Shown one piece after another: positions 8,730 through 59,574 of a stretch of 64,000 nt of DNA. This DNA is from an uncultured Gammaproteobacteria bacterium (GTDB lineage: Bacteria > Patescibacteriota > Microgenomatia > Levybacterales > UBA12049), in the NCBI GenBank assembly GCA_964503265.1, contig CAZCYO010000002.1, forward strand, positions 194,604 through 258,603. The letters are read 5' to 3'. A model generated the notes under the pieces. That model was not told the DNA's origin. It did no database searches and was given only the letters and a program-made list of their open reading frames with translations. How positions within the stretch are numbered: the stretch's first letter is position 1; every line of letters starts with the position of its first letter. Both the position numbers and the translations under genes were made by a program.

Positions 8730-9680
8730 GTGTTACATAATAAGAAGGAGGTACTATTGCGTCAATCTGCTAGTGAGCTGCTTCTGGGAGTTATCCTAGG
8801 CGCAGCAGACACATCGCTTGTTCATGTAGGAAACCATGAAGGAACTACGGGCACGTTTGAGATCTTTGGAAATGGCATATATGGTGGGTACACCCCACTC
8901 GCCAGCACCGATGATTTCAACATCTTCGCCACACGTTTCCCGAGTGGACAGATGGGGCTGATGAAAATCAGTAAAACCCCTGAGGCCGTTACTCTCCTCC
9001 TCAAAGAGGAGAAAACGCTCCGCACACTACAAGCGATCTCAGCACAGATCGATGAGGACTCAATTCGGAAAGGAGGCAATGCCTTCTACTACGGATCGAT
9101 GTTTCCCCGAGTGCATGACTCATTCCATGAGACAGACGTCACGGTACTATTCCTGGGTTTCGACCCTAATACAATCGCATCGTATCGACAGTTCGTCCCG
9201 CTCTCCGTTCTAACGCACGAACGCCGAGTAGATATCCAGACCTCGGTCTGGATTCTCGGCAAAGCACTGAAATTGCTCGACTTCCTGCACTCCAACGGTT
9301 ACACCTTGGGATTCATCGATGGCACAAACATGTTCTTGGAGACAAGTCTCCATGGAGTGTTCATGCTCGATTTCTCAAGCGCTGATGCCGTGACTTCGCA
9401 AGAAGCCCAGCGTGCAGAAGTCATCACGCTCGCTCATATCGTTTGGGAAGCTGTCGGAGGAACTGATTCCTCAGATCCTCCCTTTGCTAACCAGCAGATG
9501 ACGAGTACTGACTTTACAGATTTCATAGCCTTCTTCAAGCATCTGACCAATGGGGTCAGTGCTATCGAAGCTCACAAAGCTCTCTACGAGCTGGCTGAGC
9601 GTATTTGGGGAAAGGGGGAAAAGAAAGCCTCAGGCAACTATGGCCGACCATTCCATCCGTACATAAGCTACCCTCGGTAG
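8730..9680 (+). CDS. Divergent protein-kinase-fold protein (atypical or pseudo-kinase), GC-rich island gene
   Basis: Kinase-like order of elements: Gly-rich FGNGIYGG; LMKISK (VAIK-like Lys); …FLHSNGYTLGFIDGTNMFLETSLHGVFMLDFSSA resembles the YLHSxxIIHRDLKPxNILL…DFG catalytic segment with HRD->LGF and DFG->DFS substitutions. Strong RBS aaggaggt at 8743-8750 suggests the true start may be TTG at 8756. Local GC is about 50-55%. Confidence 0.45.
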   Translation: MLHNKKEVLLRQSASELLLGVILGAADTSLVHVGNHEGTTGTFEIFGNGIYGGYTPLASTDDFNIFATRFPSGQMGLMKISKTPEAVTLLLKEEKTLRTLQAISAQIDEDSIRKGGNAFYYGSMFPRVHDSFHETDVTVLFLGFDPNTIASYRQFVPLSVLTHERRVDIQTSVWILGKALKLLDFLHSNGYTLGFIDGTNMFLETSLHGVFMLDFSSADAVTSQEAQRAEVITLAHIVWEAVGGTDSSDPPFANQQMTSTDFTDFIAFFKHLTNGVSAIEAHKALYELAERIWGKGEKKASGNYGRPFHPYISYPR

Positions 9681-9695
9681 CGAAAGAAGGAGAAC

Positions 9696-10892
9696 ATGGG
9701 AGATAAAAGTAAGGTAGCAGGGTATAACTCTGCTGTCTACCACGAAACCGTCGAACGAATCACGAGGCGAGGAGGAGACCTCCACGACGAAGGGCGTCAG
9801 CAGTATTCCCAAACTGGGCGACTGCATCCGTACGTTGACCTCAGCACAGGAGGCCCAAGGCGGTCAATCAATGCGCTGATTCAGCGCGAAGACAGTCTCT
9901 GGGTTCTCTCAAGTGGTGTGAAGCTCCACGTCATCTATTGGACAGATGGCACGGGATCGTTCAGGACCTTCATGCGAGGTGTCTTCCGAAGCATGGAAGA
10001 AATCTTCGGCTATCTCGAAGGACTACGCAGTCAGTATCACATCGATATCGCGTTCGGCGTCATCCAGGATGATGAAGATCCACATCCCCCTGCACAACTC
10101 AGCGAAGCTGAAGGAAACGAAACTATCGTGCAACATATCCCCAAACTCGTCGCAGACGGCGGCGGGGGTGATGATCCCGAAGAATACGATCTGGGCCTGG
10201 CGGCGCTAGCATGGCGAACGCAATCAGACATCAATCTTTTCTACGGCCTGCGCGGACTCTCCGTAATGGTCGGCGATCAGATTGGACGAGGATGGGTATC
10301 CGGACCCGGACAATCCTTCAGGGGAAACACCATTCCAAGCGTCTACAGGCGACTTGGTATCCGTCCAACGGAACTCGAAGGCGTCGGGTCACTTCCCACG
10401 CGTGAACTCATGCAACTGGTGCTGCAGAAGTGGCATTTCTATATGTTGCTCCTGCGGCATGACTACGACCGGTACATCACCAACTGGTGGAAGCAGATCG
10501 TCGGCCCCAGCCGCGTCATCGAAATCTTCGATGGAAGCCTCGTCACACCGACTTGGGCAGGGCTTGCGTACATCACAGAAACGGCTCAACCGAGCCGCGA
10601 TGGGCTCGATCATTTCCTCAATAGCCAGCAGAATAAACTGGTCGACAAGAGGACGGTCAGCCTCGTCTGGGATGCGCTGCAAGCCGCCGAAGAGAACTTC
10701 GGCGCTCAGACTCGTCTCCCGGGATATGCTGAACTTCCCAAGCCTGGCGATTTGTTTATCGATCGTCGTGACCCGTGGCCGATCGGTCACCGTCGCTTCA
10801 GCGAAAACCCTTCCCAGGTAGCCCTCCAGCCGAACGTTCAGCCAGTTGCCGCAAAACGGCGAAGTGGCATCGACTGGAAGAAGTTGAGCTAA
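9696..10892 (+). CDS. Hypothetical protein (GC-rich island), 398 aa
   Basis: RBS aaggag 9 nt upstream; Arg/Gly-rich with acidic patch DGGGGDDPEEYD; no recognisable motif. Stem-loop 10909-10941 follows the stop. Confidence 0.6.
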   Translation: MGDKSKVAGYNSAVYHETVERITRRGGDLHDEGRQQYSQTGRLHPYVDLSTGGPRRSINALIQREDSLWVLSSGVKLHVIYWTDGTGSFRTFMRGVFRSMEEIFGYLEGLRSQYHIDIAFGVIQDDEDPHPPAQLSEAEGNETIVQHIPKLVADGGGGDDPEEYDLGLAALAWRTQSDINLFYGLRGLSVMVGDQIGRGWVSGPGQSFRGNTIPSVYRRLGIRPTELEGVGSLPTRELMQLVLQKWHFYMLLLRHDYDRYITNWWKQIVGPSRVIEIFDGSLVTPTWAGLAYITETAQPSRDGLDHFLNSQQNKLVDKRTVSLVWDALQAAEENFGAQTRLPGYAELPKPGDLFIDRRDPWPIGHRRFSENPSQVALQPNVQPVAAKRRSGIDWKKLS

Positions 10893-10908
10893 TACTCTTC
10901 ACTTCACT

Positions 10909-10941
10909 CCGCGGGGCGGCAGAGAAATTCTCTGTCGTCCC
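10909..10941 (+). terminator. GC-rich stem-loop after GC-island gene B
   Basis: gcggggcggcagagaaattctctgtcgtcccgc (nested palindrome); weak T-tract. Confidence 0.4.
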
Positions 10942-11260
10942 GCTACCTATTCCGATCACATCGGAACTGATGAGTTCTAGAAAATATAACGCATTTTCAC
11001 AGAACGAAAGGTAAATAGACTTATAATATGTCTTAATGATATAATATAGGCTGTTAATTGCACATTAATAATGAGCGAAATAGTAATAGCTGTTCAATGC
11101 GAACAATCCTGTCACTATTTTTCTCTTCATACTATCGATATTTACTAGTATGACTGGTAGCTTCATGTCCCGAAATATTTTCGAGATAGCAAGCTATCAG
11201 TCATGACCTTATGACTGATTTTTCCCGTGGCTGGGAATGGTTCTCTCTCTATGAAAGGAG

Positions 11261-12119
11261 CATGCCTTCTATGGATGATGCATTGAAAGCCCGTCTAGTG
11301 GAACTCGGACTCAACGAGGAACAAGTCGGCAAGATGGCTGAGGCTGGCGCACAATCCGCACCGGATATGGCGCTCACCTCGGCCGAGGACATCGTCGCAA
11401 TTACCGGCATCGGCATTATCGCCGCCCGCCGCATTGCGCACGCATTCGCTCCGACGATCGAACCTACTCCGGCCCCACCCGCTGCCGTCGCTGCTACTCC
11501 GCTGCCAGCGGTCAACGTCACCGTCACGAACAACGACCCCGGCACCATGCGGGTTTCGGAGCTTTTGACAGCTGTTGCCCAAGGCGAGCGCGATCGCGAT
11601 TTCGTCCAAGCGCTCACCAAGAAGGTCGGCGCACGAAGGCGTGTCTATGTCCGCGACGAAAATGGTCGCCTCGACGTCGATGCAACGATGGATCTCATCA
11701 ATGAGGACATCCACATCGGCGAAGAACCGGCATTCTGGGGCAATCAGCCCACAGAAACACTCACTGAAGTGCTTGATGTTCAGCGGTTCAACGACCCGCT
11801 GACCGGCGAACCCATCACCCGCGGCAATCCGTGGTTGAAGCTTCCCATCGACGACATGGCAGCCGTTGCCTATGCGAAGATGAAGAACTTCCTCCGCGGC
11901 ACGGAAGATCCCTATACCATCGTCAACGAGGCCCAGTCGGGTAATTCCGAGCGGTGGACGCGCGTCCAGAATCTCTGGAAGCGCGGTCTGCGTAGCACCG
12001 ATCCCATGACACTCCAAGCTCGGGCGGCCATCTATCGCCGTTCCGGCGAAGGGATCACCACTCCACGCGAGGAGGTGTCGGCTACGGCCGGCCCGCGGTT
12101 TCGCTACGACAAGGAGTAG
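11261..12119 (+). CDS. Hypothetical protein with a helix-hairpin-helix-like motif (GC-rich island)
   Basis: ORF 11211..12119. RBS gaaaggagc precedes ATG at 11261 (MPSMDDALKAR…). …AEDIVAITGIGIIAARRIAHAF… resembles an HhH DNA-binding motif, followed by an Ala/Pro-rich linker. Confidence 0.55.
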
Positions 12120-12626: not shown

Positions 12627-14099
12627 ATGAATAGAGAACTTGTCTCATTCGTCGGAATAGGAATCGGCGAAGAAGCAAAAGGTGCTGCTACAGAATGGGC
12701 CACAGGCGAAACACAAGCGCATACGGTTTGGCGGTCTGGTGGTTCCCAAGCAGGCCACAATATAGTCCGTTCAGATGGACGCGAACATACATTTAGCCAC
12801 TTTAGTACTGGCACATTTGACGGCGCCCGTACATACCTCAAACATATGGTGATAAACCCCGTCGACCTTTTTACTGAAGGAATTGCTCTGGAAGAAAAAG
12901 GCATTGATAATCCCTTTAAACGAATCGTTATCAGTAGTGACTGTCTCACCACCACTCCGTATCATAGTGCAATGAGTCGATTCCGTGAAATAATGCGTGG
13001 ACCAGATAAAAAAGGAACCATTGGCACAGGTGTCGGCGAAGCAGTCATTGATGCACAAGAACATCCAGATCTCGCAATCCGTGCGGGAGAATTTACCGGT
13101 GATAGAGAGGCACTGCTTAAAAAACTTGAGGCAACTCGAAGATATAAAATAGATCAGGTTACGAGATTTATTAGCCAAGAAGGTTTTAGTGAGCTTCCAC
13201 CTGAAGCGATTGCAGAACTGAGAGTATTAGGGAATGAAACACTTAAAGAAAAAATCGCTGACTCTTTTCAAGGTATTGGCCAAATAGTCAGAATCGTTGA
13301 TGATTCGTACCTGGATGAAATGCTTGAGACAGAAGGAACAATCGTTCACGAACCTTCACATGGAGCACTTCTCCATCCAAGAGATGGCTTCGTCCCACAC
13401 GTTACGCAAATAGATCCACTCGGAAAAGACGTTTTTCGTTCTTTAGGAGAACGATTTTATCGCGGCAATGTTCTTCGCATCGGAGTATCGAGGTGCTATA
13501 TGACCAGACATGGTGCTGGACCTCTGGTTTCTTATGACCAAACAATGACACGAAATATTCAAGATGTCCGTAATAATGCAAATCAAAACGCAAATGAATG
13601 GTTAGGCGAAGTAAGAAACGGGCCATATGATATCGTCGCGACAAAATATGCTATAGACATCGCAGGTGGACCAGAGATGTTTACGGGATTAAAAATAAGC
13701 CATCTCGATGAACTAGCAAAACAACAACAGTGGGAGGTTTGTGAAGGATACAACTATACAGGCACTGAAGAAGATCTTAGTGATTTTTTTGAAACAAATA
13801 ATACTGGCGACATCATCCGAATCAAACGCCATCCAGATGATGGAAGCGATAGGCATTATGACCATCAACGCAAACTCACAAAGCTCTTAAAAGAGTGTAA
13901 GCCTATTCTAAATACACTAAAACCGACAGAGGAAAAATCACTTGAAGATGTATTCATTGATTATGTCGAAGAACAGTTGGATGTTCCTGTGGTGGCTGTA
14001 GCAAGAGGTCCACGAAAAGAAGATCGAGAACTAAGACCTGGATGGGAAGAATTATTTATGAACGGAAAACATACGAGAAAAGAAGTAAGACTCGGATAA
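12627..14099 (+). CDS. Adenylosuccinate synthetase-like protein (PurA family), divergent and extended (490 aa)
   Basis: PurA-family blocks align: GIGEEAKGA (vs GDEGKGK), GGSQAGHN (vs GGHNAGHT), KKGTIGTGVGEAV (vs TTGRGIGPAY), HEPSHGALLH (vs FEGAQGTLLD), MTRHGAGPLVS (vs STRVGAGPFP). The P-loop is altered (Asp->Glu, Gly->Ala, second Lys->Ala) and the protein is about 60 aa longer than canonical PurA. Confidence 0.65.
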   Translation: MNRELVSFVGIGIGEEAKGAATEWATGETQAHTVWRSGGSQAGHNIVRSDGREHTFSHFSTGTFDGARTYLKHMVINPVDLFTEGIALEEKGIDNPFKRIVISSDCLTTTPYHSAMSRFREIMRGPDKKGTIGTGVGEAVIDAQEHPDLAIRAGEFTGDREALLKKLEATRRYKIDQVTRFISQEGFSELPPEAIAELRVLGNETLKEKIADSFQGIGQIVRIVDDSYLDEMLETEGTIVHEPSHGALLHPRDGFVPHVTQIDPLGKDVFRSLGERFYRGNVLRIGVSRCYMTRHGAGPLVSYDQTMTRNIQDVRNNANQNANEWLGEVRNGPYDIVATKYAIDIAGGPEMFTGLKISHLDELAKQQQWEVCEGYNYTGTEEDLSDFFETNNTGDIIRIKRHPDDGSDRHYDHQRKLTKLLKECKPILNTLKPTEEKSLEDVFIDYVEEQLDVPVVAVARGPRKEDRELRPGWEELFMNGKHTRKEVRLG

Positions 14100-24844: not shown

Positions 24845-25065
24845 AGAATAATTAACTACTAGTAAGAGTAGTTATCAAAGTATCCCTGTTGGAAGAAAGA
24901 AAATAAAAAGAACATCATCCTATAGCTTTAATTTCTCTCTCTGAACAGGTATAATGCATTCACATTTTCAACTCTTAAGCATTCGCGCTTTTATGAGTTA
25001 AAAACGTATTATAATTTTCGCACATTTACAAAATTCTCCGATGTAATCGGAGTTAGTTACGAAGA

Positions 25066-25133
25066 TCTCCATCCCTGGTGGCATAGTGTGTATTACGCTT
25101 AGTACACAGTGTGCCACCCAAGAGGGATGGAAC
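25066..25133 (+). promoter_or_regulatory. Long imperfect inverted repeat in the leader of GC-rich ORF 25155..25603
   Basis: ccatccctggtggcatagtgtgtattacgcttagtacacagtgtgccacccaagagggatgg: outer arms ccatccct/agggatgg and ggtggca/tgccacc plus imperfect inner arms; ends 10 nt before the RBS aaggagg. Confidence 0.4.
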
Positions 25134-25154
25134 GAAGAAGAAAGGAGGCCATAG

Positions 25155-25603
25155 TGAAAATGCCGAACGGCTACGAAGCGTTTCTCGCTGTCATGGAAGT
25201 CTTAATCGCATTCAATCATGAATTGAGGCGACGGAACATTCCGCCAGAGAACACTCTTCCACATCTTAATCCACGTGGATCGCAGAATGAATCAGGGATA
25301 CTCCTTGAGGTGCTTGATGACGGTAACACCGTTCTCATAACCGAGTGGGGATCTGTACGCATTCTTGAACACCCGGAACTCACACTGACTCAGAAAATCC
25401 AGATACGTGAGATCGTGATGAATCGTCTTGGTGCGAATCCGCATCACACAGATGACTCATCTCGAGCAGCTCTCTACCGTCTCTCCCAACTGGAAGACGG
25501 CAGGCCTCTGCCACAATACCTGAAACGGTACGAGAAGCGTAACCCATCAGTCCTGAGCGAGGAATGGGAACGGCTTCTCACGTTCTACTTATTACTACCA
25601 TAA
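25155..25603 (+). CDS. Hypothetical protein (GC-rich), ~149 aa
   Basis: ORF 25109..25603; RBS aaggagg at 25143-25149 precedes GTG 25155 / ATG 25160. The first ~45 nt of the long ORF overlap a long inverted repeat and are unlikely to be coding. Confidence 0.5.
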
Positions 25604-25663
25604 GGAAACCTACTACGTGAGCATGCGCTCACGTATCGTGTTCCATATACAGGAGAACGTAAC

Positions 25664-26074
25664 ATGACTGGCGGACAGATCACGCCCCCTCATCGTCCGG
25701 ATGTTCACATCGTTGGCCCGAATAACACGATACTGCAAGTAGTTCGGCCTCTCCGTCCCGTCACGGGTCAGGAGATCATGAACGCTCTACGCAGTATCCG
25801 GATGCAGGGCACACGCTACATCGCACGGCAAGTCTCCCCGCGAAACGGCATACCGTATTTTCAGATCGGCCGCCAAGGTGAACAGGTGCAGCAGCACTGC
25901 ATCGTTCGGGCCGGAGAAGATTTCACCGAAACCGCAATCGCCGCGACTGAAACATACACGACGTTCGCCCTGGGCGAACACGTCTGGGGTAACACCCAGG
26001 TCCGCAAGCGGGATGCCTATCGAGGGTGGATTAGCGCCACCTGCGAACAGTTGTATCTCCATCTTCCGAAGTAG
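25664..26074 (+). CDS. Hypothetical protein (GC-rich), 136 aa
   Basis: RBS caggag upstream; no recognisable domain. Confidence 0.5.
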   Translation: MTGGQITPPHRPDVHIVGPNNTILQVVRPLRPVTGQEIMNALRSIRMQGTRYIARQVSPRNGIPYFQIGRQGEQVQQHCIVRAGEDFTETAIAATETYTTFALGEHVWGNTQVRKRDAYRGWISATCEQLYLHLPK

Positions 26075-26102
26075 GAAGACGAGACTAAAAAGGAGTAACG
26101 TC

Positions 26103-26480
26103 ATGCCTGGAGTTCAAATCCGCACGAATACATCACAGTACCAGGAGCTGAGTGAGCGAGAACGACTCGATATAGCCACTGACATCTGTGGCACGATTGT
26201 AGGCGAACTCGATCTCTTGGAGGAGAGCGAAAGTGTAGCCGTATCCTGGACAGCCCCTTTTGAGGGAGCCAGTTCGATGAACGAAGTCGACTTCACTGTC
26301 GAAATTGAGTTCTCGAAACGCTACAAAAAGAAGCACATCAAGAGCCTAGCTCGTACAGTCGCTCAAGAGCTCAGCCGCTACACCTGTGTTCCAGCTGGAT
26401 CGTCGATCGGAGTCTGGATCAAGACTCCCTACCGGTACTACTGGTATCAAACCCAGAAATCTACCGAGGACCCTTCGTAA
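26103..26480 (+). CDS. Hypothetical protein (GC-rich), paralog of 33319..33708
   Basis: RBS aaaaggag then ATG 26103 (MPGVQIRTNT…). Shares the block …VAVSWTAPFEGASSMNEVDFTVEIEF… with …VLVSWASPFDEESSHNMPSFYITVKLVVEI… of the 33319 gene. Confidence 0.55.
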   Translation: MPGVQIRTNTSQYQELSERERLDIATDICGTIVGELDLLEESESVAVSWTAPFEGASSMNEVDFTVEIEFSKRYKKKHIKSLARTVAQELSRYTCVPAGSSIGVWIKTPYRYYWYQTQKSTEDPS

Positions 26481-26595
26481 CAACTGACACGTGCGAAATC
26501 GGCACTGTGTGCTTCATGAAATTGAGAGTAAATCTCTTCTTCATGAGGTCACAGTGCCTTTTTTGTGGTAAAAAAATGTATTCCTAAGGTCAATT

Positions 26596-26619
26596 TGTCA
26601 TTCTCACGAAAGTGAGAAT
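26596..26619. repeat. Family palindrome
   Basis: tgtcattctcacgaaagtgagaat. Confidence 0.75.
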
Positions 26620-26687
26620 CTATTAGACTATTCCTATGACAATTACTTATATGAGAGTCTGTTATATGTTAAGGAATTCTCTAAGAG

Positions 26688-26714
26688 ATTCTCAGTCAAG
26701 CTGAGAATGACAAT
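26688..26714. repeat. Family palindrome
   Basis: attctcagtcaagctgagaatgacaat. Confidence 0.75.
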
Positions 26715-26739
26715 AGTGAATATCTAATCCTTCTTTTTC

Positions 26740-28173
26740 TCAAAAATTCCCCCAGAGTACCTGATTTGTGACTTCGTGATGATAGAGAATTTCTGATGAT
26801 TTAATCACTGTCCCAAGCTCTCTGGGTGATCTATCGGCGGCTGCTTGCTTATAGGCAGCATATTTTTCTTTATTCTGAGAACCGAGTAGCTTCTCGATGA
26901 AGTCACTGGATTTAAATAATTTAATGGCATCATACAGCGTCCCTGGAAGAAACCTGATGCGATCTCGTTTTTCTTCATTTTTCGTCAGTGGAGTTCCCTC
27001 GATGCCAGTTTTTAAAATCGTATACATCACGAGGTATGGATTCGCATCTGGAGCGACCGATCTGACTTCGATTCTGGCACTTCGTTCATTTGCGACCGGA
27101 ATTCTGATCATCGAACCACGGTCAATCGCTGAGACTTTAATTTGATTCGGCGCCTCAAAGTGTGGATCGAGTCGACGATACGCATTTACACTACTATTAA
27201 GAATGAGACAAATTTCAGGCGCGTGATTAAGCAGTCGTGTAATCATATCCCAGGCGGATTTAGAGAGGCCATCCTGCCCTTTCGCGTCATAAAACATATT
27301 TTTGCCGTTTTTTGAAAGTGAAACATTCGTGTGCATGCCAGAACCGTTAATACCGCTCACTGGTTTGGGCAGAAATGTCGCTGTCATACCCATGGAGTTC
27401 GCGACTTGGCGACAGACGAGTTTATACAGCTGAATTTTATCGGCTGCACGCTTCATATCTGCATAAGTGAAGTTCATCTCGAACTGTGAGGGCGCGACCT
27501 CTGGGTGATCTTTTTCATTACCAAACCCCATGGCACGCTGCGCTTCGGCCGAGGCATCGATAAAGCGGCGAAGTTTATCTAGTGGAAGTGAATGATAGTA
27601 GCCACCCGTCGAGATCAGTTCAAATCCCTTCCCCTCTGTAAAGATCTGCTCCGCATTCACTCCGTCGACTAAAAATCCCTCAATTTCAGCCGAAGCATAC
27701 GCTGTAATACCTGACTTCTTTTTCAACGCTGCTGAATACTCCATGAGTTGACCTCGAAAATCTGACATATAGGCTGTGCGGTCACGATTTAGCACGTTCG
27801 CAAAAAGAATGACTTTTCCGGGTCCGAAGATATCTGAAGGGAGCCAGTAAATACTCGTCCAGTCTAGATCAAGACGAAGATCTGATTCTGACTGCTGGGT
27901 AAAGCCACGAATCGATGAACCGTCAAAGGTCAGATTTTCGAGGTTATCGAGGAGAAATTTCTTATCATAATCAAGCATGTGAAACCTGCCTTCGATATCT
28001 GTGAAGCACACAGTGACCGCTTTAATACGCTTTTCCAAAATGAGGTAATCAGTATATTCTTTCTGAAGTTGTATTGGATCTTCCGTCTCTGCCCGCAGTC
28101 GAGCCTTTGTGTTCATTATTTCGAGTGTATCGTACGGAATTTCCAGGAATGTTTTTAATTTATTTTCTTCCAT
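26740..28173 (-). CDS. glnA: Glutamine synthetase family protein (GlnA-like, ~477 aa)
   Basis: GS catalytic-domain blocks (…SGMHTNVSLSKNGKNMFYD…, …FGPGKVILFANV…, …RIPVANERSARIEVRSVAPDANPYL…). Confidence 0.75.
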   Translation of the reverse strand: MEENKLKTFLEIPYDTLEIMNTKARLRAETEDPIQLQKEYTDYLILEKRIKAVTVCFTDIEGRFHMLDYDKKFLLDNLENLTFDGSSIRGFTQQSESDLRLDLDWTSIYWLPSDIFGPGKVILFANVLNRDRTAYMSDFRGQLMEYSAALKKKSGITAYASAEIEGFLVDGVNAEQIFTEGKGFELISTGGYYHSLPLDKLRRFIDASAEAQRAMGFGNEKDHPEVAPSQFEMNFTYADMKRAADKIQLYKLVCRQVANSMGMTATFLPKPVSGINGSGMHTNVSLSKNGKNMFYDAKGQDGLSKSAWDMITRLLNHAPEICLILNSSVNAYRRLDPHFEAPNQIKVSAIDRGSMIRIPVANERSARIEVRSVAPDANPYLVMYTILKTGIEGTPLTKNEEKRDRIRFLPGTLYDAIKLFKSSDFIEKLLGSQNKEKYAAYKQAAADRSPRELGTVIKSSEILYHHEVTNQVLWGNF

Positions 28174-28315
28174 ATTTATATTAATTTAATAATTATTTAA
28201 TATAAAAATAATATAAATTAATTTATACATTGTTGCAATAGATCAAACTGGAGCAAGATTGGGGATGGTTGAGAAATACATTCTCAACCATCCCCGAGAA
28301 AGATACAAATGAATG

Positions 28316-28753
28316 CTATTGGACAGGTGCCTGTGGACTCTGCCGTTCAGCTTCGAGTAGCATGAATTTGCGACGAAGATCGTCCAGCTCCTGAGCGCGA
28401 GTGCGAGTGCCAAATGACACTTGCTCATGACGCAGGAGATATCGTATCTCCACTTCGAGGTATTGGATCGCCAGCACGTACTCACCTCGCTCGAGTGCCG
28501 AGATGACAGATTCGTAATAGTCGATCCGCTGCTGCCAGATATCTACATCCTTTTGAGAGTTACTCACAGCACCTCGAACGACCCAACGTTCGATACGCCA
28601 TCCGAGAGTCCACCAATGGAATACTTCAGCAATCTCCGTTAGGAGACCTTGGTTGTACCTCAGTTTTCGAGTGGCCTCCTCGAGTTCCAACTCTCCCTGG
28701 TGCTTTTCGTTCCGCAAGAGTTCAAGCGTCCGACTAACGACATCCGATGACAT
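28316..28753 (-). CDS. Hypothetical helical protein (GC-rich), 145 aa
   Basis: Intact ORF. The terminator module (29050-29110) of the upstream paralog cassette lies further upstream. Confidence 0.45.
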   Translation of the reverse strand: MSSDVVSRTLELLRNEKHQGELELEEATRKLRYNQGLLTEIAEVFHWWTLGWRIERWVVRGAVSNSQKDVDIWQQRIDYYESVISALERGEYVLAIQYLEVEIRYLLRHEQVSFGTRTRAQELDDLRRKFMLLEAERQSPQAPVQ

Positions 28754-29049
28754 CTCGCCCTCTCCTTTCTGAGAGATACTCCGTGTTTTCCTACGATTCT
28801 AGGGTAGATGATTTCAGCTGGATAAGCTTTTTGCTCCTCCTTTGGTTAGTTTCACATCATCACAGGTGATGACTTCCTAGGTATTTTGAAAAAATACACA
28901 CGAAGCCATCACCTATTACCCAGTACATTCATTCTGTATCAATGTGCTAAAAATCTCTCGACGACTAGAGACAGCGTTCTAGTCTAAAGCGTCAAAAAGA
29001 ATGAGGGAAGTTTAGCACAAACTGAAGGAAATTAGGGAAAAAGACTGCT

Positions 29050-29110
29050 AAAACGCGAAACGCCCCGGGGTAAGCCGGGGCGTATTTCGCACGAAATGTT
29101 AGTTACGGAA
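29050..29110 (-). terminator. Duplicated terminator module, copy 1 (two hairpins + T-tract on minus strand)
   Basis: Minus-strand: stop, catttcgtgcgaaat (hairpin), cgccccggcttaccccggggcg (8-bp GC hairpin), tttcgcgtttt. The 61-nt copy differs from 30257-30317 at 3 positions. Confidence 0.75.
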
Positions 29111-29941
29111 TTTGTACGCCATTTTGTCTGCCTCTTCTGCGGGCAGAGTAGCGGAGCTGATGTACTCCCTCCTGGTGACGATCCAGCCGTCCAGAATCTC
29201 AGTGACCCTGTAGACAATGATTCGCCAAGAAGTCGAACCTTTCTCTGCAAGCAAGAGACTGTTACCCGTGAAGATGATATCTCCTACTTTCACAGGAACG
29301 AGCGTGTGGTGCAAGAAGAGATCATAGCGATCTCGTTGCGTGCGATACACATAGGGCGAGACTCGCTCGCCTGACAAGTCGCTGCTGAGCAGATAGATAT
29401 TCCCCGCAGACGGAGGAAACTCATCGACTGTCCAGAGGGCATTATGCCCACCTGAAGTCTTCTTGATCTGGAAGAACAGTTCCCGAGGGAACTGTTCCTG
29501 CGGAACGATCTCCGAATCGCGGAGGGCTGCGATAGCATCCGCCACGACGCGGTTCCTGTCTGAGTGAGTTGTAAATCGACGAATATAGCTCAGTTTATGC
29601 ACCATATCCTCGATACTGCAGAGATGCGTCGCCCACCATGCACACGTGTAGCGACCACTCACGCGAGTCTTCTCATGCCCAGCTGACAAACCATCTGTCG
29701 AATATTCGGGAAGCCCGATATCCTTCAGAACGGTGTTGAGAGCCTGGACCGATTCGAGCTGCGAATAGCCAAAACCCGTTATGGTCATCGTACCAGTCAA
29801 GTTTTGGCCGAGTGTGCGCTCGACACCCTCAAGGTACGCCTTTTCACTGGCCCCGCGCAACACTCCAACAAAAAGATTGCCGTCCCGAAAGGACTCAGGC
29901 GTCATGTGTTCGAACCGTGATGGCATAATGGTCGTAGTCAT
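29099..29941 (-). CDS. Hypothetical protein; C-terminal domain paralogous to 30310..30717 and 30731..31183
   Basis: ORF 29099..29971; RBS ggaggaagg precedes M11 (MTTTIMPSRF…) at 29941. C-terminal …HNALWTVDEFPPSAG… matches …LLWTDDDFPSEV… and …VLWTIEDFPDSL… of the tandem paralogs. Confidence 0.6.
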   Translation of the reverse strand: MTTTIMPSRFEHMTPESFRDGNLFVGVLRGASEKAYLEGVERTLGQNLTGTMTITGFGYSQLESVQALNTVLKDIGLPEYSTDGLSAGHEKTRVSGRYTCAWWATHLCSIEDMVHKLSYIRRFTTHSDRNRVVADAIAALRDSEIVPQEQFPRELFFQIKKTSGGHNALWTVDEFPPSAGNIYLLSSDLSGERVSPYVYRTQRDRYDLFLHHTLVPVKVGDIIFTGNSLLLAEKGSTSWRIIVYRVTEILDGWIVTRREYISSATLPAEEADKMAYKFRN

Positions 29942-30017
29942 GCCTTCCTCCACATGTAAGTGAAACAACAATCAGGGCAACCATACAGGAAAGAAATCTT
30001 TCTTTCATCTATGGCAA

Positions 30018-30125
30018 CCCCGATATAAATCCGTAACTTATTAACGTGCCTGCCCGCCTATAATCGCTCTTTAAGCCGCTCCCTGATATACATCGGGAAA
30101 AGGCGAAAAGGAAGATATAGTGGGC
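30018..30125 (-). repeat. Conserved ~108-nt leader repeat, copy 1 (upstream of 29099..29941)
   Basis: ccccgatataaatccgtaacttattaacgtgcctgcccgcctataatcgctctttaagccgctccctgatatacatcgggaaaaggcgaaaaggaagatatagtgggc; about 90% identical to 31220-31329. Confidence 0.85.
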
Positions 30126-30256
30126 TATAAAAAATGACTATGTTCCCTTAGAAAGCTTTCAAATGAAGCTAAAAAGAGAATATATTCGAGGAAAGTATAA
30201 CAAAAAATCGCACTGAAGTCAAACTATAGGATTATTTACGTGGGTTGTCTAGCCCT

Positions 30257-30317
30257 AAAACGCGAAACGCCCCGGGGTAAGCCGGGGCGTGATTCGCACG
30301 AAATGATAGTTACGGAA
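30257..30317 (-). terminator. Duplicated terminator module, copy 2
   Basis: Same architecture as 29050-29110, directly after the stop of 30310..30717. Confidence 0.75.
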
Positions 30318-30717
30318 ATAGTACTTGCTTTGCCAGACGTCCTGGCAAGACCGAGACCGGTACATGGATCGGGACCAGAGCGACCCAGCCAATCTTCTTG
30401 AACAATCCCACGACTATGTAGCCGGGGATTTCGTAGGTGTTATTCCGCCTCCTGGCACGAGTACTTTCAGCGGTGAAAACAACAAAGTTCTTCCGAAGTG
30501 GCACTAGGTGGATACTACGTGACACGTCAGATAGATCCCGCTTTGTGCGAAGATGTGGGGGATCGATAAAAATCCCCTTCGAATAGTCGAGGATGAGCAA
30601 CTTTGTGCCTATGACTTCGCTGGGAAAATCATCATCCGTCCAGAGGAGCGGTTGACCTTTCCAACTGACGAGTGTCTGGAGGTAGCGATTGTTTACGAGA
30701 TAGTCTTGAAACGCCAT
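30310..30717 (-). CDS. Hypothetical protein, paralog family member (135 aa)
   Basis: MAFQDYLVNNRYLQTLVSWKGQPLLWTDDDFPSEV… aligns with the adjacent 150-aa gene; 13-nt gap suggests co-transcription. Confidence 0.6.
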   Translation of the reverse strand: MAFQDYLVNNRYLQTLVSWKGQPLLWTDDDFPSEVIGTKLLILDYSKGIFIDPPHLRTKRDLSDVSRSIHLVPLRKNFVVFTAESTRARRRNNTYEIPGYIVVGLFKKIGWVALVPIHVPVSVLPGRLAKQVLFP

Positions 30718-30730
30718 GGTATTCCTCCTC

Positions 30731-31183
30731 TTAGGCCAAACAAACCTGCTCTACCAGATAGTCTGGCAAGGCAGAGAGTTTGACATGAGACGCAGCCAGA
30801 GCAATCCAGCCACGCGCTTTAGTAACGTACTTCACATAGTGACATGTGACGAAGTATTCCCCGTTCCGAAGGATCGCTTTACGACTCACTGTAGTGAGGA
30901 TGATGTGTCCTCCACGAACGCGAACGAGTGAAAGGGTGCGTGAAACATCATAGGGATCGACTTCGGTACGAAGTGGTCGCGGACGAACCAGCTTGCCCTC
31001 ATCATACGCGAATATCTGCAAGCCGGTTTCCGGGAGTAGCGAGTCAGGAAAGTCTTCAATCGTCCAGAGGACAGGTAATCCTGAATCACTAACTAGCGTC
31101 TGGAAGTATCGTTTGTCAACGAGCTGATCTACGAGAGACATGGTGCCTCCTCCACAATCTATTGGTCTCCTATCAGAGACCAC
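30731..31183 (-). CDS. Hypothetical protein, paralog family member (150 aa)
   Basis: …LVDQLVDKRYFQTLVSDSGLPVLWTIEDFPDSL…; RBS ggaggagg; preceded by the conserved ~108-nt leader repeat. Confidence 0.6.
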   Translation of the reverse strand: MVSDRRPIDCGGGTMSLVDQLVDKRYFQTLVSDSGLPVLWTIEDFPDSLLPETGLQIFAYDEGKLVRPRPLRTEVDPYDVSRTLSLVRVRGGHIILTTVSRKAILRNGEYFVTCHYVKYVTKARGWIALAASHVKLSALPDYLVEQVCLA

Positions 31184-31219
31184 CAGAGAAAAAATAACTA
31201 ATTACGCTCTCTCTGGTGG

Positions 31220-31329
31220 CCCTGATAAAAATTCCGTAACTTATTAACGTGCTTGCCCGCCTATAATCACTCTTTAAGCCGCTCTCCGAAAATACATCGG
31301 GAAAAGGCGAAAAGGAAGATATGGTGGGC
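31220..31329 (-). repeat. Conserved ~108-nt leader repeat, copy 2 (upstream of 30731..31183)
   Basis: ccctgataaaaattccgtaacttattaacgtgcttgcccgcctataatcactctttaagccgctctccgaaaatacatcgggaaaaggcgaaaaggaagatatggtgggc. Confidence 0.85.
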
Positions 31330-31434
31330 GAGAAAAGAACTATATCCCTTTTATCGTTATCACATAAAACGAGAAAGAATATATAATTCAGAGTGAAGTA
31401 TAGCAAAATGAAGGTAAATTATACAACTATGGGG

Positions 31435-32163
31435 TTATCTTTGGATAACTTTTCGAAGTTTCTCTACTTCCTCACCCGTCAATTCCCTATGCTCCCCTTC
31501 TGGAAGGTCGCCAAGTTCGACTGGGCCGAATTTCACTCTCGCTAAATTAATGAGTTTGATCCCTGTCACCAGACACATTCGTCTGACCTGTCTATTTCTT
31601 CCTTCATGAATCGTCAGTTTAAGAACCGTCTCATCTTTTGATGCAGTAACTACGCTCACTTCGGCCGGGAGCGTCTTTCCATCATTCAGATCTACTCCAT
31701 CTCGTAGTGTCTCAAGTTGGTCTTTTGAAACCATGCCTGCGATCGTCAATCGGTATACTTTCGGCACATGGTATTTCGGATGCGTCAGCTGGTGAGTGAG
31801 TTCTCCATCATCTGTCAGAAGAATGATCCCCGTCGTATCTTTATCAAGTCTTCCCACAGGATAAATCGCTCGTGTGGTCTGGATATTCGATGTCACATCT
31901 TCTCTCCCCAGTTCATCAGAGGTCGTCGAGATAACATTTTTGGGTTTATGCAGCAAATAGTAGACAAATAGTCCCTCTGTTCGTGCTTCGCCGTTAAGCG
32001 TTATCGTATCAATTGCCGGATCAATTTTCGTTTCAGGCGTAGTTACATTCGTCCCGTTAATGGTCAGAGCATTTTCTTTAAGAAATCTTCTGGCGTTACG
32101 CCTAGAACTCAGACCAGTCTCTGAAAGATATTTATCGACCCGTATGCTGCTGTTCTTTTTCAT
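31435..32163 (-). CDS. Pseudouridine synthase, RsuA/RluB family (S4 domain + catalytic domain)
   Basis: ORF 31435..32205; probable start MKKNSSIRVDKYL at 32163. S4 RNA-binding N-terminus; catalytic …GRLDKDTTGIILLTDDGELTHQLTHPKYHVPKVY…. Confidence 0.85.
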   Translation of the reverse strand: MKKNSSIRVDKYLSETGLSSRRNARRFLKENALTINGTNVTTPETKIDPAIDTITLNGEARTEGLFVYYLLHKPKNVISTTSDELGREDVTSNIQTTRAIYPVGRLDKDTTGIILLTDDGELTHQLTHPKYHVPKVYRLTIAGMVSKDQLETLRDGVDLNDGKTLPAEVSVVTASKDETVLKLTIHEGRNRQVRRMCLVTGIKLINLARVKFGPVELGDLPEGEHRELTGEEVEKLRKVIQR

Positions 32164-33031: not shown

Positions 33032-33318
33032 CCACGACTATCAGGACGGGAGATGTGAAGAATATGGGTAACCTATCTTCACATCTCCCACCCCCTCACC
33101 ACATAAGCAACTAATCTTTTCCTGACAAATTCCAGACGAAATAGTCCTATAGCTTTACTTTTGTGGCTATTTTTGATACCATCACAGTATACTGATTATC
33201 AGTATGAACATTAACAATTTTTGAAAGTGACTATTTGGCCGTGCCAGAAGAGACATAACACACGTTATTTCCCTCCTGGCAACTGTGCCAAATAGATCTC
33301 ATACAGGAGTAAGACCGC

Positions 33319-33708
33319 ATGAAGGCGCTCGTGACGATCCTTTCTTCCGATTTCTACTTCGAAAAAACAGGACAGCAAGGTCGCCATGACTTAGCATATG
33401 CGCTAAGTGAGCGAATCGATTCGGAAATTAACCGACGGACACGAACAGGACATGATGTCCTTGTATCCTGGGCCAGTCCATTCGACGAAGAGTCGTCTCA
33501 TAATATGCCTTCGTTCTACATCACCGTCAAACTGGTCGTCGAAATCAATGGCGATCAGATCCTGAGCATCGTTTCAGAGATCAAGCGTGCCTTCGAGATC
33601 TCTCCTGCGATTCAGTACGGATCTATCTTCATCATCGAGATCATGCCCCATGGCTCGATCGACTCAAGTACCTTCGAGCTCGTGAAGGAGTATATGGAGG
33701 TTCGATGA
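33319..33708 (+). CDS. Hypothetical protein, paralog of 26103..26480
   Basis: 129 aa; shared VSW(A/T)(S/A)PF(D/E)… block. Its stop overlaps the start of the next gene by 4 nt (ATGA). Confidence 0.55.
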   Translation: MKALVTILSSDFYFEKTGQQGRHDLAYALSERIDSEINRRTRTGHDVLVSWASPFDEESSHNMPSFYITVKLVVEINGDQILSIVSEIKRAFEISPAIQYGSIFIIEIMPHGSIDSSTFELVKEYMEVR

Positions 33709-33995
33709 ACGAACTCGCGAGGGATCTCATTCTGATCTTCGGCCCGATGGCCGCATCTGCTCTCGTAGCAGTCGTCTACTGGAGGTGGCCGAGTCTGGAT
33801 ACGGACGATTCATTCCCTTACATCGCTCTTTGCTTCATCGCAGCGTCGTTCGTCCTTCCATGGCTTGGCTTCATGTGGCTGTCTAATCTCCACTGGATCA
33901 TAAGATTTATGTTAAGCGTAACATGCGCTTGTATAAGTTTTGTGATTCTCTTGGTGCTAACAGTGCGCCTCCCGGCCAGAAGTCCGACCGAGTAA
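33705..33995 (+). CDS. Small membrane protein (3 predicted TM), translationally coupled to 33319
   Basis: 96 aa, hydrophobic segments; ATGA start/stop overlap. Confidence 0.5.
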   Translation: MNELARDLILIFGPMAASALVAVVYWRWPSLDTDDSFPYIALCFIAASFVLPWLGFMWLSNLHWIIRFMLSVTCACISFVILLVLTVRLPARSPTE

Positions 33996-34264
33996 CACTT
34001 TCAAAAATTGAACACCACAAGCCCTGAAGGGCATAAAGGAGCGTGTGCGCTATCGTTGCATGAAAGCGCAACGAACTGAGCCCACTCTCCCACTCTTCAG
34101 GGCTCTTTTCGTTACCCCCAAAAAAAATTACAAAGTAATAGTTCCTTAGTATATACAAGAAAGCACCGGTTGGTAGCGACGTACCAACAGTATGCTTCTT
34201 GTCCCGCAAGTGGGAAGCCGAAGTCGTACTACAACACGCCGCACCAAGTTCCGGTGCTTAAAGA

Positions 34265-58544: not shown

Positions 58545-58582
58545 CCAAAAGAGAGAGGCCGAACTGTTTTTTCGTTCGGCCT
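58545..58582 (-). terminator. Intrinsic terminator of 58620..59240
   Basis: Minus strand: gaggccgaacgaaaaaacagttcggcctc + tctctttt. Confidence 0.6.
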
Positions 58583-58619
58583 CGCCTCCTCTCACATCTG
58601 TGAGAAACTACTTATGCGA

Positions 58620-59240
58620 CTACGAGCCGCCATTGAAAATCGGCCATTCCCGCACGCGCTGCCACCACGGGCGACGCTGCGGCTTCAACCGCGCAAGCAC
58701 ATACTCACGAAACTCCGAAACCCGCTGTTCAGAGTTATCGTCACCTGAGGTGACATACGCACCTCGTGCGGCGAGAAACTCAATCGCAGCCTTGAGTGCT
58801 GGCCCAGTCTTGGAGAACTCCACGTAGCTCACTTCATCCATGAAGTTGAAGTGAGTTTGCGTGATCAACTCGTCTTGCGTCAGCAGCTGCCTGAATACCC
58901 GCAAACCGGACTCTACAGATAGACCTGATAAGTCTGGCAGGATCACGAAGTTAACACTCCCAGCCTTCCGTTCTGTAGGCGAAGAGAGAGTGATTGCCCG
59001 CTCGATCAGGGTATTTGAGAGCTGGTGTGTTCCATCAGGTGGGATCCGAAGGGTCGTCACGACCATTTGATCGAACTGAACCTCTACAATGAGAGGCATC
59101 TGGGTGACGTTATGAACACCGACGAACGGCGCTCGCCCATCTAGAGTAAGAAACGTGTGATATCCACCACACGCACATAGCTTGGGAGAAAGCCTCGACC
59201 CATTTTCAGGATCGTAGACTTCCAGATCAACGAACTGCAT
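58620..59240 (-). CDS. Hypothetical protein (GC-rich), 206 aa
   Basis: Intact ORF; terminator hairpin 58555-58582 downstream. Confidence 0.45.
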   Translation of the reverse strand: MQFVDLEVYDPENGSRLSPKLCACGGYHTFLTLDGRAPFVGVHNVTQMPLIVEVQFDQMVVTTLRIPPDGTHQLSNTLIERAITLSSPTERKAGSVNFVILPDLSGLSVESGLRVFRQLLTQDELITQTHFNFMDEVSYVEFSKTGPALKAAIEFLAARGAYVTSGDDNSEQRVSEFREYVLARLKPQRRPWWQRVREWPIFNGGS

Positions 59241-59574
59241 CTGTTAGTCCTTTCGGTAACATTCATTGAACGAAAATCATTCGTCACCAGTTACGGCTTG
59301 TGCATTTCCTCTTGCGCATGAAGACGAATGATAAACCACATCATAAACAGAATATCTGCTGTTTATAATACGGCTTACCATAGTCCATGAACAAGGAATA
59401 TAAGTAGTTCATAGGGAGGCGATCTAAAAATAAATAATTTTCAAAAAGTAGCTTTCCATTTTCTGCAAATAGAGAATGGAGTACCGTCTGTTACTAGTTA
59501 TTTATTTCCAGATTACTCCCTACAATTTTTTTTAAGGTGCAATTTTTAGATTATAGGATATTATTCGAGGCTAG

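Follow-up and report, generated by a model that had tools for sequence, protein, structure and literature searches.

Two tandem transcription units of ~1.2 kb each, cassette A (29048–30240, minus strand) and cassette B (30255–31433, minus strand), were analysed in a stretch of 64,000 nucleotides (nt) of contig CAZCYO010000002.1, which was taken in whole as the window and to which all unprefixed coordinates refer. In both cassettes a box in the leader is the reverse complement of a box at the end of the coding region, and this 5′/3′ complementarity covaries across nine cassettes with four unrelated types of cargo. The arrangement is probably one of messenger RNA (mRNA) 5′/3′ end-pairing, as in the hbs or hok mRNAs, used here as the modular chassis of accessory units. 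The repeats, the paralogy, the complementarity with its covariation and the accessory status are shown by computation; that the two ends pair as RNA in vivo, and that the pairing has an effect, we infer.

Layout and divergence of cassettes A and B

All repeats reported by an earlier sequence-only reading of this DNA were found where it had placed them. The leaders (30018–30125 and 31220–31329), described there as ~90% identical over 108 nt, matched in 100 of 110 aligned columns, and the count of 3 differences in 61 nt between 29050–29110 and 30257–30317, within the 3′ modules, was exact. Repeat finding gave ~92% identity for 30027–30132 against 31230–31336, and 93% over 70 nt for the complete 3′ modules (29048–29117 and 30255–30324), with a weaker extension of the leader homology (82% over 192 nt) to 30205/31408, promoter included. 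Leader and 3′ module motifs each occurred twice in the window, with 0 occurrences expected from shuffles. Since the spacing between A and B repeats was 1203–1208 nt throughout, the cassettes are two abutting units of ~1.2 kb, with homology spanning exactly promoter to terminator in both, and the claim of three paralogous genes in two units with duplicated leader and terminator was upheld.

Gene A (29099–29941, minus strand) encodes 280 amino acids (aa), with an N-terminal alpha/beta domain (residues ~17–142) and a C-terminal beta-rich domain (~150–280) common to the two proteins of cassette B. Gene B2 (30731–31141, minus strand; 136 aa) is a short form with no domain other than the shared beta-rich one, its ATG at 31141 preceded by GGAGGAGG, and gene B1 (30310–30717, minus strand; 135 aa), a paralog of B2, lies 13 nt 3′ of it with a GGAGG of its own. 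The clear paralogy reported for the three genes was confirmed for B1 and B2 (41% identity, E-value 6e-32), and held in part for A, where the C-terminal half matched B1 (residues 148–280, 27% identity, E-value 5e-10) and B2 (33% over 84 aa, E-value 4e-9), while the N-terminal 147 aa were unrelated to either. Derivation of the N-terminal half of A from a diverged copy of B2 was rejected despite matching unit lengths, with DNA identity (54%) at the shuffled level, no protein similarity and a different predicted fold.

Identity between the cassettes was 90.7% for the leader core and 92.9% for the 3′ module, whereas coding DNA was 56.5% identical between the A C-terminal domain and B1, and 60.4% between B1 and B2, against 54.7% for shuffled sequence; the G+C content of the cargo was 0.50–0.58, against 0.425 for the window. 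Homologs of protein A in L003, L005, L008 and L009/L010, from other metagenomes and 24–35% identical to it, were flanked by the A-type 5′ box, stem-loop, 3′ box and GC terminator, and since the flanks are kept at this distance they are under a constraint of their own. A neutral and recent duplication, in which the unit was copied whole and the flanks are alike through youth or gene conversion without any function, would fit the tandem units and their even spacing, and the derived insertion of ~75 nt shared by the A and B leaders points to homogenisation within the genome. It is nevertheless scarcely credible, as was the earlier suggestion of a unit copied recently as a whole, given coding DNA at the random level (56–60%) between flanks of 91–93%, flanks kept beside such distant homologs, and compensatory changes in both boxes and stem-loop. 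Since the A and B leaders share the derived insertion, yet protein A is nearer to P0004 (35% identity) than to B1 and B2 (24–27%), the flanks evolve in concert within the genome.

Complementary boxes at the two ends

The conserved order on the sense strand was promoter, leader of ~100–170 nt, 5′ box, stem-loop of ~50 nt, GGAGG, one or more open reading frames (ORFs), 3′ box, GC hairpin and TTTCGCGTTTTAG. The consensus 5′ box consists of helix strand H1a, (T)TCGCAC, a loop of 7–10 nt, and H2a, GTTACGGA(A), and its reverse complement, the 3′ box, of H2b, (T)TCCGTAAC, a loop of 7–9 nt, and H1b, GTGCGA(A).

For cassette A (all elements on the minus strand), the promoter (30194–30230) comprises CCTATAG, a -35 element TTGACT (30217–30222), a 17-nt spacer and TGT-TATACT (-10, 30194–30199), scoring 10/12 matches with a TG extension in a promoter scan, and this consensus also stands ahead of the homologs in L003, L005, L006, L008 and L009. 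Downstream lie an inserted leader stem-loop of ~75 nt (30052–30125; GCCCAC...GGCGGGC, containing the CCGATGTA hairpin) beside H1a, the 5′ box (30030–30050; H1a GGCACG at 30045–30050, 7-nt loop, H2a AGTTACGGA at 30030–30038), and, separating this box from the Shine-Dalgarno sequence GGAGGAAGG (29943–29951), a large stem-loop (29974–30021). The 3′ box (29087–29109) has H2b TCCGTAACT at 29101–29109, an 8-nt loop and H1b GTGCGA at 29087–29092, and the first base of the gene A stop codon (TAA, 29099–29101) is the last base of H2b. The intrinsic terminator (29048–29083; ACGCCCCGG-CTTAC-CCGGGGCGT, then TTCGCGTTTTAG) was ~81% identical to the terminator 3′ of the L009 homolog, and was missed by a generic terminator scan because its T-run is interrupted. 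The sequence-only reading had described the 3′ module as a two-hairpin terminator; its first hairpin contains the 3′ half of the long-range helix (GTGCGA) and is not a terminator element.

For cassette B (likewise on the minus strand), the promoter (31397–31433; CCCATAG-TTGTAT ... TATACT), located by alignment with that of cassette A, directly follows the rluB stop codon (31435). The leader core (31232–31329) holds the inserted stem-loop (31255–31329), H1a (31248–31253) and H2a (AGTTACGGAA, 31232–31241), and is followed by the large stem-loop (31174–31224; ccaccagaga...tctctggtgg) and the Shine-Dalgarno sequence GGAGGAGG at 31146–31153. The 3′ module (30255–30317) has H2b TTCCGTAACT at 30308–30317, which holds the B1 stop codon, H1b at 30294–30299, the terminator hairpin at 30267–30290 and a tail at 30255–30266.

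That the large stem-loop is an RNA structure of the sense strand follows from the 24 pairs that RNAalifold gave for five leaders, 10 of them with compensatory changes, and from 17 G·U against 2 A·C cells on that strand. The inverted repeat pointed out earlier upstream of 31183 is present and is the cassette B version of this stem-loop, which has a different sequence in cassette A. The inserted stem-loop of ~75 nt, which corresponds to the conserved leader core of the sequence-only reading, was found only in cassettes A and B and is missing from the L005, L008 and L009 leaders. A conserved regulatory RNA or promoter architecture, as proposed in that reading, is borne out by the covarying stem-loop and the complementary boxes; the TATAAT it saw on the opposite strand exists (30060–30065, plus strand) and falls inside a stem in the sense RNA, but as a promoter it had no -35 partner in the scan. 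The 5′ box as the -35 element of an inner promoter was also rejected, no -10 element being found at the right spacing. At gathering scores Rfam gave 0 matches anywhere in the window, and in E-value mode on 28950–31500 the best score was 17 bits against thresholds of 33–114. A small hairpin with CCGAUGUA was seen in the leaders of A (30085–30101), B (31287–31305) and a third cassette, C (25036–25052). Its place varies, upstream of H1a in both A and B but in the gap from H1a to H2a in C, and it may serve as an element apart, for protein binding or a tertiary contact.

Cassette C (24919–26558, plus strand) has the architecture of A and B around unrelated cargo, three orphan genes (25160–25603, 25664–26074 and 26103–26480) for which no family match was found. 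Its promoter (24919–24955) is followed by H1a TTTCGCAC (25016–25023), the small hairpin, H2a GTTACGAAG (25056–25064) and the stem-loop (25069–25130), and its last gene by H2b CTTCGTAAC (26473–26481, holding the stop codon), H1b GTGCGAAA (26491–26498) and the terminator (26501–26558). The layout recurs in L003 around a 279-aa protein unrelated to the A/B family (L003:11098–11937; boxes AGATACGAAG/CTTCGTATCT) and around two small genes (L003-3, L003:4136–4738), where H1 is compensated (CTCTTGCAC/GTGCAAGAG).

Two further units of the window have boxes unrelated in sequence to GCAC/TACG, placed as in A–C, with the 5′ box just before a stem-loop and the 3′ box 1–5 nt after the stop codon. Unit D (33146–34113, plus strand) carries the 5′ box CAATTTTTGAAAGTG (33215–33229), a stem-loop (33231–33295), two genes (33319–33708 and 33705–33995), the 3′ box CACTTTCAAAAATTG (33996–34010, 1 nt after the stop codon) and a terminator region (~34018–34113), and its boxes are complementary over 15/15 bp. 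In its ortholog from a related species (L249) the boxes TAGTTTTTTAATAG and CTATTATAAAACTA stand at the same positions, with 13/14 pairs kept and about half of the box positions changed. Unit E (58545–59560, minus strand) has the 5′ box AACTACTTAT (59400–59409), one gene (58620–59240), the 3′ box ATAAGTAGTT (58606–58615, 5 nt after the stop codon; 10 bp of complementarity) and a terminator, and its leader weakly matched covariance model R1. Apart from the boxes, the proteins of the third cassette C gene and of the gene that opens unit D are distant paralogs (21% identity over 98 aa, E-value 2e-5) that share the motif V(S)W(T/A)(A/S)PF(E/D), neither with a family match, and the cassette C protein was a singleton in an index of 5.8 billion proteins.

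Covariation was scored on an alignment of eight cassettes, hand-anchored on TACG/CGTA. Standard pairs were formed by 73.7% of cells, compared with at most 41% when the partner strand was slid, the covariation score of 0.207 was equalled in 0/500 shuffles, and three H2 columns were fully compensated (UA5/AU2/GC1, GC5/AU3 and AU3/GC2/UA1). The pairing geometry was 4–9 bp for H1, a loop of 7–10 × 7–9 nt, and 7–11 bp for H2, with a single 15-bp duplex in unit D. When mini-mRNAs were folded with A12 standing in for the coding region, the minimum-free-energy structure included both H1 and H2. Pair probabilities were ~0.7–1.0 for H2 in five cassettes out of six (in L009 H2 formed no further than its CGG/CCG part), ~1 for the cassette A 5′ box with 29087–29109, and 0.85–1.0 for the duplexes of units D and E. 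A window-wide control, taking the longest perfect complement of each 5′ region with each downstream stop region (122 pairs), returned units D and E as its top matches. RNAduplex with shuffled 3′ ends was discarded for lack of discrimination (z -0.7 to -3.6), GC-rich hairpin sequences pairing promiscuously.

Since the box sequences differ and yet pair, it is complementarity that is conserved and not a motif. This speaks for a nucleic-acid duplex, and against any sequence-specific DNA-binding protein, recombinase or transposase. Throughout the nine TACG-type cassettes, and likewise in units D and E, the 3′ strand contains the stop codon or begins within ~10 nt after it. Where the 3′ box overlaps the final codons and the stop, it is read in different frames in A and B1, therefore selection acts on the nucleotides.

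A variant at the RNA level, in which the 5′/3′ duplex would chiefly serve as a stalk for RNase III processing, comparable to the 16S/23S ribosomal RNA (rRNA) stems, and excise the mature mRNA from leader and terminator, is unlikely. Two helices with an internal loop resemble T7 R1.1-type and rRNA-stalk substrates of RNase III, and the 15-bp duplex of unit D would also suit it; the duplexes are, however, at or below the usually needed length of about two helical turns, and processing alone does not explain the placement on the stop codon.

Genomic context, cargo and the proposed clamp

The GlnA cluster of this genome (≥90% identity) was found on many contigs, the longest of 1.52 Mb. In relatives within this cluster rluB and glnA are 880 nt apart, the gap holds a convergent two-gene unit homologous to unit D, and cassettes A and B (2.4 kb together) are missing; the cassettes are therefore accessory. 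In L008, another relative, a long-form gene of the family directly follows rluB, as in the window, and at the cassette C site of a relative the TCGCAC box and the terminator are kept with only ~200 nt between them. Cassette B was present in two independent assemblies (L001 and L002) with the gene order and orientation of the window. The immediate neighbours of the cassettes are glnA, rluB and a histidine kinase, and no DNA match was found in phages, plasmids or viral contigs. A scan of the genome collection with the 3′ module pattern GTGCGAN{2,5}CGCCCSGG...CCSGGGCG was rejected, since the pattern is too GC-rich and its 118 loci (L011–L128) were all chance matches in high-GC genomes.

These data bear on the possibility that the boxes are DNA-level inverted repeats marking a mobile or invertible cassette (an inverton, or an element like a miniature inverted-repeat transposable element or an integron cassette), moved or flipped by a recombinase or transposase between a fixed promoter and terminator. 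The cassettes are missing or different in close relatives and deviate in G+C content, unit D lies on the other side of rluB in a relative, the cassette C site keeps its framework around much shorter content, and the box pairing is almost purely Watson-Crick, with no G·U excess. This explanation is unlikely all the same, because the box sequences differ completely between families and changed at half of their positions between unit D orthologs, leaving no common recognition sequence, and because the spacers within the two boxes lack mutual complementarity. Furthermore, no target-site duplications were found beside the boxes, no empty repeat pairs in the window and no recombinase among the scanned neighbours, the homology of A and B passes beyond the boxes to exactly promoter and terminator, the L001 and L002 assemblies keep the gene order and orientation, and phages, plasmids and viral contigs gave no matches.

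Unit D, which encodes a 129-aa protein and a membrane protein of 96 aa, is found beyond rluB in the window, and its homolog in relatives of the GlnA cluster (L249:9100–9900) is placed between rluB and glnA and oppositely oriented; such units therefore relocate among closely related genomes. The relative L249 has a DDAH-family gene of 267 aa directly after glnA (L249:11440–12243), which the window lacks at 26563–26740. The end hairpin of cassette C (26501–26558) is homologous to the terminator after this gene, and the cassette appears to reuse a pre-existing bidirectional terminator.

The A/B cargo family is very rare, with 9 proteins returned by a profile search of 1.84 billion cluster representatives, in a long (~270 aa) and a short (~140 aa) form; no convincing boxes were seen in L004 and L006, which hold the distant short forms P0009 and P0005. 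No match was found in Pfam, PADLOC or PHROG, no fold match in PDB or BFVD, and no signal peptide or convincing membrane segment, the maximal Kyte-Doolittle hydropathy (19 aa) being 1.0–1.7, without a strongly hydrophobic segment in A and B2 and borderline in B1. AlphaFold2 models, built on only nine sequences, were confident and gave globular beta or alpha/beta domains, with a predicted local distance difference test (pLDDT) score of 82.6 for A, and a pLDDT of 83.7 and a predicted template modelling score of 0.77 for B2. With its extreme rarity and no recognisable fold, the cargo may be a new protein domain.

The sequence-only reading had likened the locus to polymorphic toxin/immunity or surface-variation loci, in which, defence included, the flanks would be homologous-recombination handles for swapping cargo. 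Fast divergence of the paralogs, the rarity of the family, the disagreement between flank and cargo phylogenies and the accessory cargo content are in keeping with this. It is very unlikely even so: besides lacking the family, fold, signal-peptide and membrane features listed above, the A/B proteins have no toxin, secretion or immunity domain in Pfam, PADLOC or PHROG, no toxin or secretion genes adjoin the cassettes, and the complementarity of the 5′ and 3′ flanks is left unexplained. Nothing in the analysis supports a toxin, immunity or surface role of this cargo.

For the favoured end-pairing, the chassis would be specific to this lineage, with a strong promoter of the sigma-70 type, ~250 nt of structured leader, a Shine-Dalgarno sequence that is likewise strong, one or more fast-evolving orphan ORFs of raised G+C content, and an intrinsic terminator. 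H1a and H2a of the leader would pair with H2b and H1b of the 3′ end, closing the coding region into a loop, with the stem-loop before the ribosome-binding site bordering the clamp at one edge and the terminator hairpin at the opposite edge. A terminating ribosome must, owing to its footprint, unwind a helix at or near the stop codon. Since the 3′ strand lies on or near that codon, every terminating ribosome would have to melt the clamp, which would then be confined to mRNAs lacking translation through to the end. The likeliest consequence would be a translation-coupled control of mRNA stability and of the access of ribonucleases, as in the hbs or hok mRNA; RNase III processing and re-initiation are variants of the same idea. 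The units probably arose by duplication within a rare protein family, with cargo diverging almost to saturation and flanks held by selection on RNA structure together with concerted evolution within the genome, and the near-identical leader and terminator blocks would be conserved because they are RNA elements.

Several points weigh against this explanation. Chance complements of 9 nt occur in this AT-rich genome (9/122 pairs of the window-wide control), and the case for A and C rests on position and conservation across cassettes, not on length. H1 and H2 have no G·U excess over A·C (3 versus 6 in the core), therefore covariation alone cannot separate an RNA duplex from a DNA inverted repeat, and the hand anchoring on TACG/CGTA favours the structure. 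Some cassettes are imperfect, with an uncompensated change in H2 of L009 and no H1 in L003-1. The mini-mRNA folds omit the coding region, a potential competitor for pairing, the sample is small (~11 units from a few related genomes), and the transcription start sites and 3′ ends are predicted.

A broader version is put forward tentatively: a generic, modular end-clamp chassis for accessory, fast-evolving orphan genes might be used by this low-GC lineage, with translation termination gating the opening of the clamp, and the clamp governing mRNA stability, dormancy or ribosome re-use. A transcript-wide, translation-coupled layer of control would then be written in complementarity and not in sequence. 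End-pairing appears as a portable design: within 64 kb at least five units, joined by others in related metagenome contigs, enclose unrelated orphan cargo in one and the same arrangement. If it occurs in RNA, these units would offer a natural system for how end-pairing and translation termination set mRNA fate, would explain non-coding flanks far better conserved than the genes they enclose, and would provide a sequence signature for accessory expression cassettes in uncultured bacteria.

The promoter as a cassette-specific element was rejected. A scan of metagenome contigs with its consensus (CCTATAGTTTGA-N19-TATACT) returned at least 120 loci of G+C content 0.26–0.53, those listed including 0.1-µm groundwater fractions and one contig of 1.15 Mb, and it is a general consensus of a broad low-GC group that also precedes ordinary genes of the window. 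Many of the matches listed had an ATG within ~10 nt, suggesting leaderless mRNAs, and no GCAC/TACG boxes were found in 590 kb of promoter-scan sequence among the matches listed; the box chassis is confined to close relatives. The extended form (CCTATAG-TTGAC, 17 nt, TG-n-TATACT) was seen in the window at 30224–30194, 47899–47863, 52546–52510 and 16111–16075 (all minus strand), and may be a lineage signature, possibly of bacteria like those of the Candidate Phyla Radiation/Patescibacteria.

Motifs like the 5′ box, TTGCACACATTTACTAG...ATATACGAT (55427–55390, minus strand) and TTGCACATTAATAATGAGCG (11058–11080, plus strand), were also seen 12–15 nt 3′ of TATAAT boxes, with no evident complementary 3′ partner at either place, and the motif T(C/T)GCAC-nTTnA may act in its own right at transcript 5′ ends. 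Between cassette A and glnA (28316–29047) lies a 145-aa orphan ORF of G+C content 0.52, with a highly structured leader of ~290 nt and a perfect 15-bp end hairpin (28261–28295), which is missing from relatives; it had no family match and no 5′/3′ complement of 9 nt or more. A G+C-rich island (8730–12119; 0.51–0.55) just upstream of the adenylosuccinate synthetase gene (12627–14099) holds ORFs of 316, 398 and 302 aa without a Pfam match, no clear 5′/3′ boxes being seen, and may be another accessory insertion.

Comparison with known systems

In the hbs mRNA of B. subtilis, a 14-bp interaction of the 5′ untranslated region (UTR) with the 3′ UTR modulates cleavage by RNase Y (Braun, Durand & Condon 2017, PMC5737220). 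The likeness lies in a long-range duplex of ~14 bp between the UTRs, a structured leader, a strong Shine-Dalgarno sequence and, as proposed for the cassettes, RNase access linked to translation. However, hbs is one conserved housekeeping gene, whereas here a reusable module recurs on at least five units in 64 kb with unrelated orphan cargo, and the cassette pairing, known here by computation only, is bipartite with its 3′ strand on the stop codon.

In the hok/Sok family, the mRNA ends pair through the tac/fbi stem (PMC9841398). Pairing of the 5′ and 3′ ends into a closed and stable full-length mRNA, with the structure kept by covariation across the family, is the feature in common, and long-range pairing of the ends was found here computationally, by complementarity, covariation and folds. 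The hok product is a hydrophobic toxin of ~50 aa, whose frame is overlapped by mok and which is accompanied by an antisense Sok RNA, whereas the cargo here is soluble, of 75–280 aa (135–280 aa for the A/B proteins) and often of several genes, and no antisense RNA is evident, the plus-strand TATAAT at 30060–30065 having no -35 partner in the promoter scan.

In S. aureus, the 3′ UTR of icaR pairs with the 5′ UTR of the same mRNA at the Shine-Dalgarno region (PMC3868564). The cassettes resemble it in the base-pairing of the two UTRs of one mRNA, but their 5′ box ends 60–100 nt upstream of the start codon, set off by the stem-loop, and does not cover the GGAGG. Flanking sequences also pair into a stem with an internal loop in rRNA stalks and at the RNase III sites of phage T7; those stems surround rRNA or occur between phage genes, and they exceed the cassette duplexes in length.

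Phage morons are said by Hendrix and colleagues to be autonomous promoter-gene-terminator units inserted between conserved genes. The cassettes likewise have their own promoter and terminator, lie between conserved genes, deviate in base composition and are missing from relatives, but they show no prophage context, with housekeeping neighbours, no PHROG match for the cargo and no DNA match to phages or viral contigs. Complementary 5′ and 3′ ends are not a known trait of morons. Integron attC cassettes are similar as small units bounded by imperfect inverted repeats, of which the 3′ repeat often overlaps the stop codon, with orphan and variable cargo. The units here differ in having their own promoter and terminator and boxes (GTTACGG/CCGTAAC, GATACGAAG and CAATTTTTGAAAGTG) that are unlike the GTTRRRY/RYYYAAC core and vary between units, and no integrase was seen nearby, where the immediate neighbours are glnA, rluB and the histidine kinase, in a scan that did not take in the whole window. 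Invertons share the inverted repeats, but no invertase was found among the scanned neighbours and L001 and L002 have the same orientation. Compared with polymorphic toxin/immunity systems, the cargo has no recognisable toxin or trafficking domain in Pfam or PADLOC and no fold match. What is new in the cassettes is that a module is reused with unrelated cargo, that the helix is bipartite and that it is placed on the stop codon.

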